A DNA stretch of 57,431 bases, from positions 1 to 57,431 of the forward strand of contig JBAXFJ010000004.1 in NCBI GenBank assembly GCA_037139975.1, in the 5' to 3' direction. Of the stretch, positions 28,690-30,948 are shown piece after piece. The number at the start of each line of letters is the position of its first letter. Position 1 is the first letter of the stretch. The notes below the pieces were generated by a model. It searched no databases. It was not told where the DNA came from and saw nothing but the letters and a program-made list of their open reading frames with translations. This stretch comes from a bacterium (GTDB lineage: Bacteria > Patescibacteriota > Minisyncoccia > Phycocordibacterales > SBAW01). The position numbers and the translations under genes were made by a program.

Positions 28690-30228
28690 ATGTTTTCTTT
28701 CATAGACAATCTCCTCAATCGGGTCACCATGTACCGGTTGGTGCTCTACTATCTCGTGGTGCTCTGGGCGTTCGCGTTTGTCTTCTTTGCACTCCATATC
28801 CTGGCGCACAGCCCTATTGACCTGCTCTTCTCAACACTCGTTATTTTGGGGGTGTGTGCGCTCACCCAGGTGGTGTTTGCAAAAGTCTTTCAGGCCGCGA
28901 CCAACATCGAGTCGGTCTACATCACAGCGTTTATCCTCGCGCTGATCATCTCGCCGGTCTCGTGGAGCGACGCATCGGGTATCGGCTTTCTCGTCTTTGT
29001 CTCGGTGTTTGCTATAGCTTCAAAATATATTCTCGCGATTGGTAAGAAGCATATTTTTAATCCTGCGGCGTTGGGTGTCGCGCTCGCGGCCCTCACGATA
29101 GGCCAGTCGGCGACCTGGTGGGTGGCGGGCAACTCGGCGCTCATGCCCATTGTGGTCATTGGGGGCCTGTGCATCGTGCGCAAAATTCGTCGCTTCGACC
29201 TCGTGATCGCTTTTTCGGTTGTCTCGCTCATAACCATCTCGCTCACGCGACTCGCGGGCGACCCCCTTACGCCCATGCTCCAAACATTTTCGCACTCCGC
29301 ATTTTTCTTCCTTGCGTTTGTGATGCTCACCGAACCGCTCACGATGCCACCCGAACGCTGGACGCGCATCCTTTATGGCGCGATTGTTGGGTTTTTGTTT
29401 GCGCCTCATGTGCACTTCGGCTCTTTCTATCCAACACCCGAAATCGCGCTGCTCATCGGCAACATCTTTGCCTATGCGGTGAGCCCCAAGGGGCGCTTCA
29501 TGCTCACCTTGAAAGAGAAAAACAAGTTGGGCGAAGGAGTGTATGAATTTGTTTTTAATCCAGACCGGCCGCTCTCGTTTCTGCCTGGGCAGTACCTCGA
29601 GTGGACACTTCCGCATGCGAAGCCCGACAGCCGCGGGAACAGACGCTACTTTACTATTGCCTCGTCGCCAACAGAAAATACCGTGCGCCTTGGGGTCAAA
29701 GTCTATGAGCCTTCGAACACCTACAAACAAGCGCTCATGGGGATGCCGGTGGGCGGCATGGTCTCCGTCTCGGGGCTTTCGGGCGAATTTACTCTGCCAA
29801 AAAATAAAAAGAAAAAACTCGTCTTCATTGCGGGCGGCATCGGCATCACCCCATTTCGCGCGATGGCTCAGCAGATGATCGATACAAAAGATACGCGCGA
29901 CGCGGCGCTCTTGTATTCCAATAAAACACTTACCGAGGTTGCCTACAAAGACGTGTTCGATAGGGCAAAAGAAGTTGGGCTCAAGACGGTGTATGTAATA
30001 ACGAACGAGAAGGTGGGGGAGAAGATAGGCGGCCCAGCCGCGCCCGCGGGCGTCTACGGTGGGATGCTCGACGCCGCGCTCATTATGCGCGAAGTGCCCG
30101 ACTTTAAAGAGCGTATGTTTTATCTTTCGGGGCCGCACGGCATGGTCGAGGCATTCAAAAAAACGCTACATGGTATGGGCGTCTCACGCTTCAATATCAA
30201 AGCCGACTACTTCCCCGGGTTTGTGTAA
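28690..30228 (+). CDS. RnfD/NqrB-like membrane domain fused to an FNR-like FAD/NAD(P)H domain
   Basis: KHIFNPA, MLTEPLTMP; RYFTIAS, AGGIGITPF, YLSGP. Confidence 0.88.
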   Translation: MFSFIDNLLNRVTMYRLVLYYLVVLWAFAFVFFALHILAHSPIDLLFSTLVILGVCALTQVVFAKVFQAATNIESVYITAFILALIISPVSWSDASGIGFLVFVSVFAIASKYILAIGKKHIFNPAALGVALAALTIGQSATWWVAGNSALMPIVVIGGLCIVRKIRRFDLVIAFSVVSLITISLTRLAGDPLTPMLQTFSHSAFFFLAFVMLTEPLTMPPERWTRILYGAIVGFLFAPHVHFGSFYPTPEIALLIGNIFAYAVSPKGRFMLTLKEKNKLGEGVYEFVFNPDRPLSFLPGQYLEWTLPHAKPDSRGNRRYFTIASSPTENTVRLGVKVYEPSNTYKQALMGMPVGGMVSVSGLSGEFTLPKNKKKKLVFIAGGIGITPFRAMAQQMIDTKDTRDAALLYSNKTLTEVAYKDVFDRAKEVGLKTVYVITNEKVGEKIGGPAAPAGVYGGMLDAALIMREVPDFKERMFYLSGPHGMVEAFKKTLHGMGVSRFNIKADYFPGFV

Positions 30229-30234
30229 AGTTAA

Positions 30235-30262
30235 TTGACTTTTTAGCTAGTGGGTATATACT
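30235..30262 (+). promoter_or_regulatory. Sigma70-like promoter with no sense ORF downstream
   Basis: TTGACT-N16-TATACT. Confidence 0.6.
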
Positions 30263-30267
30263 GTGGT

Positions 30268-30321
30268 TACATTCGGCATTAGCCGCGACCCCCGCCCGCA
30301 AGGGCGGGGGAACATCGTTTT
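30268..30321 (+). ncRNA. Candidate small RNA convergent with the PemK/MazF gene
   Basis: Hairpins cggc-atta-gccg (30274-30285) and cccccgccc-GCAA-gggcggggg (30289-30310) directly after the promoter. Confidence 0.45.
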
Positions 30322-30706
30322 AAAAGTATAGTTTTTGAAATCCCTCTTTTATTTTCGCAAAATTGTCGGTATCGATTTGGCCAAGTTTTGAATGCAGACG
30401 CCTGTAGTCGATGGTGCGTATTTGGTTAAGGCATACGTATTCATCTTGTTCATCAAACTGAACGTATACATACCAACTGCCCTCGCGCTTTTGTGTGGTG
30501 GTGGGCGCAACGAGATAAAATCCATGTGCCAACTTTTTGATAATCAGCACAGGCCGAGAAAAACGACCGCTTTTGCCATTCATTTCTGAGCCGACATTTT
30601 GGCCCAAACTTGCCCACCACAAGTCTCTTTCCGAAACAAATGGTGGGCGATGGTCACCGCTATCAAGTTTTTCTTTTATGCCGATCCATTCCAAAAATCG
30701 CTTCAT
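30320..30706 (-). CDS. PemK/MazF-family toxin, no adjacent protein antitoxin
   Basis: DLWWASLGQNVGSEMNGK..RPVLI..VAPTTT..QIRTID..RL..KLG; TACACT 6 nt upstream. Confidence 0.88.
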   Translation of the reverse strand: MKRFLEWIGIKEKLDSGDHRPPFVSERDLWWASLGQNVGSEMNGKSGRFSRPVLIIKKLAHGFYLVAPTTTQKREGSWYVYVQFDEQDEYVCLNQIRTIDYRRLHSKLGQIDTDNFAKIKEGFQKLYF

Positions 30707-30948
30707 GTAAAAAGTGTAACATCTATTTACGAGTAGAAAGTGTCGCACGAGCGTGTTAAAATTTAACCATAAAAATGTCCGTAGGGGTGATGTGTGGCGA
30801 ATCAGGTATCCCATGCGGTGGCACGCATGTGAGCAATCTCGGCAATATCGGGCCAATTGTGGTGCGCAAAATAAAGAAAGAAAAAGATGTGATTCGGGTG
30901 TCGTATGCGCTCTAAAACACAGAGCCTCGGCCATGCTATACTAAGGGG

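Follow-up and report, generated by a model that had tools for sequence, protein, structure and literature searches.

A lone MazF/PemK-family toxin gene in a Patescibacteriota genome faces a conserved small structured RNA, a candidate RNA antitoxin

Introduction

How might a MazF/PemK-family toxin be kept in check when no antitoxin gene stands beside it? This question is raised by a 57,431-nucleotide stretch of DNA (hereafter, the window; contig JBAXFJ010000004.1 of assembly GCA_037139975.1, forward strand) from a bacterium of the Patescibacteriota (Minisyncoccia; Phycocordibacterales; SBAW01). In the window, a predicted toxin gene on the − strand ends at a short intergenic gap that contains, on the + strand, a promoter directed back at the toxin gene and two potential hairpins (positions 30,235 to 30,706 in all). 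MazF/PemK serves as the textbook case of a type II toxin and, to our knowledge, all partners described for it have been proteins. A preliminary description, made from the sequence alone, had proposed that a small structured RNA transcribed from this gap is the antitoxin. All the elements on which that proposal rested were present in the sequence, and a comparison with relatives of the toxin, reported here, showed that the promoter is conserved and the hairpins covary beside the homologues (81/81 loci; 73/82 promoters).

A small RNA gene is conserved beside the toxin

The gap between the end of the + strand gene (30228) and the toxin stop codon (30320-30322) is exactly 91 nt long. As had been described, it holds a TTGACT-N16-TATACT promoter (+ strand, 30235-30262; −35 element at 30235-30240, −10 element at 30257-30262; 10/12 consensus matches), a 4-bp hairpin and a 9-bp stem capped by GCAA. 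This promoter was the best of three promoter-like sites in 3 kb; since shuffled sequences gave 2.5 such sites, the single match is not significant by itself, whereas its conservation at a fixed distance, presented below, is. The predicted small RNA would be approximately 53 nt long (30269 to ~30321, + strand), with its start placed from the position of the −10 element and the onset of conservation, and its 3′ end from a U-rich tail. It would begin with 5′-ACAUUC, the first four bases of which (ACAU, 30269-30272, at the predicted +1) are the part of the sequence UACAU that lies 3′ of the MazF scissile bond. This is followed by hairpin 1 (4 bp, CGGC/AUUA/GCCG, 30274-30285), a GCGACC linker, hairpin 2 (a 9-bp GC stem with a GCAA loop, 30289-30310, the predicted terminator of the RNA) and a AACAUCGUUUU tail that overlaps the toxin stop codon. 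Both hairpins were identified by folding and by covariation, and the folding z-score of 30262-30345 was −3.69. A repeated element, such as a repetitive extragenic palindrome, was rejected, as the 20-mer of hairpin 2 occurs once in the window (0/100 shuffles) and the covariance model described below matched the genome in a single copy.

A homologue search yielded 392 relatives of the toxin, and the comparison was made over 80 loci from contigs of one genome per species, together with the window (81 loci). Within the 160 nt that follow the toxin stop codons, two hairpins and a TTGAC promoter located approximately 77–86 nt from the stop were present in most loci. A covariance model, R1, was built from the alignment of 72 clear loci and searched against the window, the locus of a paralogue (see below) and the 80 loci. 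Altogether, 82 matches were obtained, with 81/81 toxin loci carrying one at the 3′ end of the toxin gene and on the opposite strand; these included the window (30262-30325, 63.5 bits) and 9/9 loci left out of the model (E-values from 1.8e-8 to 1.6e-14). There was one extra copy, in locus L050, and none beside the paralogue. In the converse search, in which 151 genomes of the phylum were screened for the RNA first, 9/9 matches (5 of them from one genome) abutted a PemK-family match on the other strand.

Base pairing was maintained by compensatory change. In the R1-fitted alignment, which leans towards structure, 95.5% of the cells were paired and 10/12 pairs had changed on both sides, giving 129 compensatory cells, a value reached in 0/500 shuffles, while slid partners gave at most 11 cells. 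The individual values were 98.1% paired cells and 3/4 pairs changed on both sides for helix 1 (top pair C-G in 46 and G-C in 34 cases), and 94.2% and 7/8 pairs for helix 2. In a plain MAFFT alignment, double changes were likewise found in 8/8 pairs predicted by RNAalifold. Further, the unpaired ACAUUC and GCGRCC and the UU of loop 1 were near-invariant among loci in which the toxins are 51–88% identical and the flanks are unalignable.

Two further observations concern the distribution of the element. The additional copy in L050 (215-278, − strand, 59.6 bits) lies approximately 2.2 kb upstream of the toxin gene, adjoins an unrelated open reading frame (ORF) and has a poor promoter (4/12); it could represent an antitoxin copy that has been orphaned or is decaying. 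The full module was also carried by loci labelled Alphaproteobacteria, Methylocystis or Hyphomicrobium (L004, L014, L034, L046, L053, L058 and L060), where the flanks have a G+C content of 0.53–0.60, pointing either to horizontal transfer out of Patescibacteria or to mis-binned contigs.

Strand, start and end of the predicted RNA

The promoter (at least 8/12 matches), with exactly 6 nt separating the end of its −10 element from the conserved A of ACAUUC, was present in 73/82 matches, compared with 1.4% of 5000 control positions, and 79/82 required no shift in spacing. In the −35 element, T, T, G, A and C were found in 81, 78, 76, 62 and 59 of the 82 matches, respectively; in the −10 element, the leading T and A were each found in 78 and the final T in all 82. 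As regards wobble pairs, the interior pairs of helix 2 comprised 18 G·U vs. 1 A·C in the RNA sense; A·C combinations found in the loop-proximal pairs and at the outer pair of helix 1 were taken as unpaired positions. A GNRA loop capped helix 2 in 44/80 distinct sequences when read in the RNA sense and in 1/80 in the toxin sense, so that the earlier assignment of the GNRA loop to the + strand was borne out by both loops and wobble pairs.

The 12 nt after helix 2 contained on average 6.7 U in the RNA sense vs. 1.6 in the toxin sense among relatives, so that the GC hairpin looks like the small RNA's own terminator. The preliminary description had noted no U-tract directly after the stem on either strand. 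This holds in the toxin sense; in the RNA sense it has to be revised, as the + strand of the window has a UUUU run that starts 8 nt past the stem and the tails of the relatives are clearly U-rich. Promoter, wobble pairs, loops and tail all agree in placing the predicted RNA on the + strand of the window.

Conservation set in at the predicted +1, where ACAUUCGG begins, whereas positions −6 to −2 were free. ACAU occupied positions +1 to +4 in 67/82 matches and, among these 67, position −1 was U in 53 and C in 14. This pattern of free upstream positions, U or C at −1 and an onset of conservation at +1 is as expected for a start site.

The toxin is a predicted MazF/PemK endoribonuclease without a conserved protein partner

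The toxin gene (30320-30706, − strand) encodes a predicted endoribonuclease of 128 aa that matched the Pfam family PemK_toxin (PF02452) over residues 27-126 with 52.5 bits (cut-off 23.1, E-value 6.6e-14). Pfam gave no other family, and none of the PADLOC models matched. Its score against the NCBIfam MazF equivalog was 22.9, below the cut-off of 120, indicating that it is not an orthologue of E. coli MazF. When a profile of 21 family members was searched against the PDB, the best matches were to B. subtilis MazF/EndoA (4mdx, 1ne8, 4me7; E-value ~3e-9). In line with this, the AlphaFold2 model (mean predicted local distance difference test score, pLDDT, 80.8) showed a helix (residues 2-16) followed by a MazF barrel, and its best Foldseek matches (1ne8, 4mzp and 4mdx) were all MazF proteins (E-value ~1e-7).

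The parallel that had been drawn with ToxN, which shares a Kid/MazF-like fold, was that of a nuclease neutralised by RNA. It stands as an analogy of mechanism only, as the protein is a MazF homologue closest to B. subtilis EndoA and is not ToxN-like.

Residues R51, T70, G39, E41 and P52 of the toxin aligned with R25, T48, G18, E20 and P26 of B. subtilis MazF (MazF-Bs) and were invariant or at least 90% conserved in the 21 sequences; the segment QIRTID is common to both proteins. According to the structural report on MazF-Bs (PMC8634880), R25 and T48 take part in RNA binding and are needed for toxicity, and G18 and P26 make base contacts. The family differs in a helical N-terminal extension of approximately 25 residues with invariant W7 and K11. 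By these sequence and model comparisons, the toxin is predicted to be a catalytically intact MazF/PemK endoribonuclease.

A longer ORF (204 aa, ATG at 30934) was rejected, since the homologues are ~128 aa long and in-frame stops occur just upstream in the examples inspected. At the other end, the ORF lacks the usual stop in some relatives (P0093 and P0098; L018, L098, L107, L108 and L111) and reads across the GC hairpin into Gly/Arg/Pro-rich tails, which may reflect extension, decay or sequencing error.

Upstream, the toxin gene has an extended −10 motif of its own (TGn-TACACT, 30713-30721, − strand; TACACT at 30718-30713), as read from the sequence and in agreement with the preliminary description, and the ATG follows after 6 nt. 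Among relatives, a −10-like hexamer ended 3–12 nt before the toxin start in 45/67 loci, and a Shine-Dalgarno-like motif preceded it in 1/67. As the −10 element adjoins the start and Shine-Dalgarno motifs are rare, the toxin mRNA is probably leaderless or near-leaderless, which would leave no space for an upstream co-transcribed gene.

Clustering of the 1054 ORFs located within 700 nt of the toxin in the 81 loci revealed no conserved protein partner: the most recurrent neighbour family was present in 7/81 loci and corresponded to the antisense reading of the small RNA itself. An adjacent protein antitoxin (MazE/PemI) was thus rejected, as none recurs beside the toxin, and the orphan status that had been ascribed to the gene held across all loci. 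The same genome does contain one canonical, overlapping mazE-mazF pair on another contig, C1 (L147:1489-2105), where mazE is of the AbrB/SpoVT type (94 aa) and mazF (121 aa) lacks the N-terminal extension. The genome therefore holds the classic protein-antitoxin form together with two RNA-linked forms, the second of which is described next.

A paralogue and relatives in Campylobacterota

The genome encodes one more lone PemK with an N-terminal extension, a paralogue with 35% identity to the toxin (contig C3, L002:1474-1914, − strand). It has no upstream partner and faces a convergent TTGCAT-N18-TATACT promoter (L002:1345-1476), after which a predicted RNA with two hairpins, bearing UUCG and GAAA loops, extends up to the stop codon; the sequence of this RNA is different and it did not match R1. 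The locus is followed by two tRNA genes. Of 401 genomes of the phylum, 51 contained relatives of the paralogue, with as many as 7 matches in a single genome. A strict automatic test (promoter with at least 9/12 matches followed by at least two hairpins) was passed by 17/30 loci of this family, and several of the others failed only because the toxin ORF enters the RNA or because the minimum-free-energy fold merges the hairpins. The RNAs of the family begin with ACAAAUGG, AUAAAUGG or similar sequences, the first bases being ACAAAU or AUAAAU.

Among IMG/VR contigs, one relative had an R1 match after the toxin gene and two more had similar two-hairpin RNAs. In one of the latter two (contig L125), two RNA units stand in tandem ~150 nt after the toxin gene and on the opposite strand, each consisting of a GGCC-AYUA-GGCC hairpin and a GC hairpin. 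A promoter was seen before the toxin-proximal unit, and the region upstream of the distal unit fell outside the stretch examined. This arrangement hints that the number of RNA units can vary. As regards gene copies, four genomes of 0.8–1.6 Mb (G082, G167, G303 and G394) each gave 5–7 matches to the toxin superfamily, and in G082 five of these were each accompanied by an R1-type RNA.

More distant relatives (29–34% identity) that keep the N-terminal extension were found on plasmids of Helicobacter and Nitratiruptor and in CJIE4 prophages of C. jejuni, in all cases as MazF genes without an annotated antitoxin. The Helicobacter (L140, L142 and L143) and Nitratiruptor (L141) plasmid loci had convergent promoters and structured RNAs of other sequence. 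The three Helicobacter loci had in common a convergent extended −10 element and a three-hairpin RNA in which 3/19 pairs predicted by RNAalifold had changed on both sides (three sequences only).

In C. jejuni RM1221, a supplementary table of a differential RNA sequencing (dRNA-seq) study (Dugar et al. 2013, PMC3656092, supplementary file 4) contains an entry for position 1367803 (+), a start site antisense to the prophage gene CJE1470 and flagged as a putative antisense RNA (asRNA), with a step height of 74.4 and an enrichment of 9.65; CJE1470 itself has its primary start at 1368332 (−), which gives a leader of 19 nt. The sequence of 51 nt that accompanies the antisense start is identical to the promoter already located on the RNA-sense strand of the CJIE4-1 locus (L139, 2917-3077), and the start lies 76 nt beyond the toxin stop. 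For the CJIE4 prophage, a further report describes MazE as absent and MazF as detected at the protein level (PMC3995785). Together, these data show convergent transcription of an RNA next to a lone MazF gene of the same branch in C. jejuni, though not thereby in the organism of the window, and the Campylobacterota loci are tractable models for the family.

Direct binding and its alternatives

The neighbours of the toxin vary from locus to locus, copy number varies between genomes and the G+C content of the module is low (0.43 for the toxin vs. 0.53–0.54 for its flanks), all of which are features of mobile toxin–antitoxin or defence modules. This mobile-looking module has a nuclease and a small RNA as its only constants, which is explained most simply by an RNA antitoxin. 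More specifically, we propose that the small RNA binds the toxin directly and probably as a pseudo-substrate, a proposal derived from sequence comparison to which we give an even chance of being correct. Direct binding is favoured because the unpaired bases are near-invariant, whereas an RNA acting in cis by antisense would be complementary to its target whatever its sequence.

The module would thus consist of two genes, a MazF/PemK toxin expressed from a leaderless mRNA and a stand-alone RNA of ~50 nt, the latter transcribed convergently from its own sigma-70-type promoter and ending at a hairpin terminator that abuts the toxin stop codon. The RNA would bind the toxin dimer directly, in the manner of type III systems, with its single-stranded 5′ ACAUUC lying in the substrate groove, where it would act as a pseudo-substrate or mimic a cleavage product. 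Starting at the A that follows the scissile U^A bond, the RNA would lack the nucleotide that provides the attacking 2′-OH and would be uncleavable. The two hairpins, and perhaps the extra N-terminal helix of the toxin, would add affinity, and the toxin would be released once the short RNA was lost. We infer by comparison that the RNA is transcribed in this organism, that the protein is toxic, that the RNA neutralises it and that it binds in this mode.

Several further observations speak for direct binding. The nearest solved relatives of the toxin are UACAU-specific MazFs (the B. subtilis and S. aureus site), and the ACAAAU start of the paralogue-family RNAs resembles the MazF-Da site UACAAA. 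In the complex of MazF-Bs, the uncleavable substrate carries a deoxy-U just before ACAU (PMC8634880), from which it follows that the bond cut is U^A, even if one review passage words the position of MazF cleavage differently. Further, TACAT was depleted in 79 toxin genes (34 observed vs. 50.2 ± 5.4 in synonymous shuffles; 0/300 as low), whereas the control words ACATT, TACAA, ATGTA and TACTT were not; ACAT, which is nested in TACAT, was low too (6/300). Finally, residue 40 of the toxin is adjacent to the Gly which, in MazF-Bs, makes contact with the second A of UACAU; residue 40 was Ser in 66/67 toxins paired with ACAU RNAs, compared with Ala (6), Phe or Tyr in 8/10 toxins paired with ACUU or ACCU RNAs.

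On the other side of the balance, a number of points weigh against this proposal. The link to UACAU rests on homology of at most 31% identity; 15/82 RNAs have no ACAU at +1; and the RNA of C. jejuni starts with a sequence other than ACA. Of the ten ACUU-type RNAs, two were paired with toxins that keep Ser40, the association at residue 40 lies almost wholly within one clade, and a test on independent pairs was not significant, being underpowered (2 pairs on supported branches, p = 1). The depletion of TACAT (z ~ −3) was measured on related, non-independent genes. The start site is a prediction; were transcription to begin one base earlier, the RNA would itself be open to cleavage in those 53 loci where position −1 is U. 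With regard to the strand, five A·C mismatches at the outer pair of hairpin 1 would be G·U in the toxin sense. The canonical MazE of the genome could in principle act in trans. Lastly, the RNA is fully complementary to any read-through transcript of the toxin gene and, given that there is no U-tract after the hairpin in the toxin sense and that RNase III is encoded, control by antisense is no less feasible and may operate alongside binding.

This leads to the foremost rival explanation, in which the RNA is a cis-antisense regulator of the type I kind that pairs with the 3′ untranslated end of read-through toxin mRNA and never touches the protein, toxin synthesis being lowered because the duplex is cut by RNase III or because convergent transcription interferes. 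The convergent layout, with the RNA abutting the toxin stop, is in keeping with it, and so are the mere 1.6 U in 12 nt behind the toxin-sense GC hairpin, which make read-through plausible, and the RNase III gene of the genome. In addition, the RNA of the C. jejuni relative is classed as an antisense start site, and txpA/RatA, bsrG/SR4 and yonT/SR6 of B. subtilis are described as using 3′-end pairing and RNase III (PMC6562991). However, pairing in cis needs no fixed sequence, and the unpaired bases are nevertheless near-invariant where toxins diverge and flanks cannot be aligned. Compensatory changes preserve both hairpins, the RNA reaches no further than the stop codon and so covers neither the coding region nor the translation start, and the +1 ACAU, the depletion of TACAT and the pattern at residue 40 would have no role. 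We consider antisense control as the sole mode of action unlikely, if by no means negligible.

Strict linkage and conservation point to recognition, whereas the toxicity of the protein is a prediction; the RNA could accordingly be a dedicated partner of another kind, namely a substrate matured by the protein, a cofactor or activator, or part of a ribonucleoprotein that serves, for example, in phage sensing, with a protein that is perhaps non-toxic. Members of the family are highly conserved, with up to 88% identity between species, and often occur in several copies, and the protein of the C. jejuni relative is detectable in growing cells, although a neutralised toxin would be detectable as well. 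As all catalytic and substrate-binding residues of growth-arresting MazFs are kept and the variable neighbours, the copy number of up to 7 per genome and the low G+C content are those of a mobile module, such a role seems rather improbable. A bidirectional terminator with a chance promoter and no RNA gene, the toxin being controlled by a protein encoded elsewhere such as the C1 MazE, would suit a hairpin between two convergent genes, an individually non-significant promoter and a genome with a canonical MazE, but is most improbable given that the neighbour differs by locus while the element stays with the toxin in 81/81, that the individual bases of the promoter and its distance from the RNA are conserved, that hairpin 1 and the unpaired bases are conserved as well and the hairpins covary, and that the C. 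jejuni relative has a mapped start site at the corresponding position.

Returning to the direct-binding antitoxin, its broadest formulation would be that of a fourth, and widespread, class of protein-binding RNA antitoxins, distributed from Patescibacteria, where a tiny genome often has several copies, to plasmids and prophages of Helicobacter, Nitratiruptor and Campylobacter, in which the RNA is an uncleavable product mimic defined by its transcription start and toxin specificity co-evolves with the RNA 5′ end (Ser40 with A at +3). We put this forward tentatively, as a possibility that falls somewhat short of even chances.

Relation to known toxin–antitoxin types

With type III systems (ToxIN, CptIN and TenpIN, the three-family classification given in abstracts on the subject), the module shares an endoribonuclease toxin that, on the present proposal, a small structured RNA binds and keeps inactive, as well as a mobile, defence-like character with variable copy number and a conserved RNA gene linked to the toxin, here in 81/81 loci and with covariation. 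In contrast, the toxin belongs to PF02452 MazF/PemK rather than to ToxN/AbiQ, CptN or TenpN. The known type III families have a tandem repeat array upstream in the same transcript; tandem repeats were not found at the window locus, where one RNA unit lies downstream of the toxin gene, convergent with it and under a promoter of its own. Processing by the toxin would not be needed. The earlier statement that the layout is unlike that of canonical type III loci is thereby upheld.

Type II MazEF/PemIK systems, such as EndoA-EndoAI of B. subtilis, have the same toxin family and fold, the same catalytic Arg and Thr and the same base-contacting Gly, Glu and Pro. They differ from the present module, which has no MazE/PemI beside the toxin in 81 loci, an extra N-terminal helix in the toxin and a conserved RNA gene.

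In the type I systems with 3′ overlap (txpA/RatA, bsrG/SR4 and yonT/SR6), as here, a convergent RNA lies at the 3′ end of the toxin gene and a terminator hairpin is common to both; the par system of E. faecalis is a further type I system with 3′-end overlap. Their toxins, however, are small hydrophobic peptides and their RNAs overlap by many tens of bases, whereas the toxin described here is a 128-aa soluble nuclease of the MazF fold, and its RNA stops at the stop codon and has conserved unpaired sequence. As proposed, the module is type III-like in its working and like 3′-overlap type I systems in its layout, with a MazF toxin that lacks MazE.

Two individual cases come closer still. The pemK RNA motif (Rfam RF02913) was likewise named for its association with pemK genes (PMC5737381), but this model gave no match in the window region (E-value up to 10) or in the whole genome (E-value up to 1). 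More generally, no Rfam family was detected at the RNA in the loci of 15 relatives (gathering score) or in 9 viral loci (E-value up to 0.1), and a known RNA family was rejected for the window RNA, as Rfam 15 gave only sub-threshold CRISPR-repeat look-alikes on the GC hairpin (20.5 bits vs. a gathering score of 45). CJE1470 of the C. jejuni CJIE4 prophage is similar in being a lone MazF (29% identity) with the N-terminal extension and with a mapped start pointing back at it. It differs in its RNA, which is longer, of different sequence and without an R1 match, and which is known from a table row as a putative asRNA. No MazF/PemK toxin with an RNA antitoxin, nor the same RNA, was found in the open-access papers and bioRxiv preprints searched. 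The RNA-antitoxin pair cjrA/cjpT on C. jejuni pVir may or may not be related to the present family.

If direct binding is correct, a large and well-conserved branch of MazF with an RNA as its sole constant companion would break the link between toxin family and antitoxin type, and the single-unit, convergent RNA with its own promoter would be a new RNA-antitoxin architecture that crosses the boundary between types II and III. It would also account for many "orphan" MazF genes, including the MazE-less CJE1470. Patescibacteria would gain a candidate RNA-controlled abortive-infection or addiction module with up to seven copies per tiny genome; by the title of a 2016 paper, major lineages of such bacteria are essentially devoid of CRISPR-Cas systems. 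A pseudo-substrate defined by its start would, moreover, offer a compact design for RNA inhibitors of MazF nucleases, testable with ~500 bp of DNA.

Genomic setting of the locus

The genome to which the window belongs comprises 758 kb in 29 contigs and is 96% complete. Two metatranscriptome runs of the same study placed nothing on the window and were uninformative either way. The gene convergent with the toxin (28690-30228, + strand) encodes, according to Pfam, a membrane NQR2/RnfD-like domain fused to FAD/NAD-binding domains. The boundary of a possible insertion was not definable from a comparison of synteny and empty sites, as in a genome of the same genus the oxidoreductase gene is followed by an unrelated gene. 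On the other side of the toxin gene, an ORF of 46 aa (30775-30915, + strand) contains only the C-terminal end of a tRNA_SAD/AlaX editing domain (Pfam, 31.9 bits), corresponding to positions 198-232 of the 234 of AlaXM. This ORF seems to be what remains of an alanyl-tRNA editing gene, the 5′ part of which would fall at the present toxin module, and this remnant together with the low G+C content of the module fits an insertion of, or replacement by, the module.

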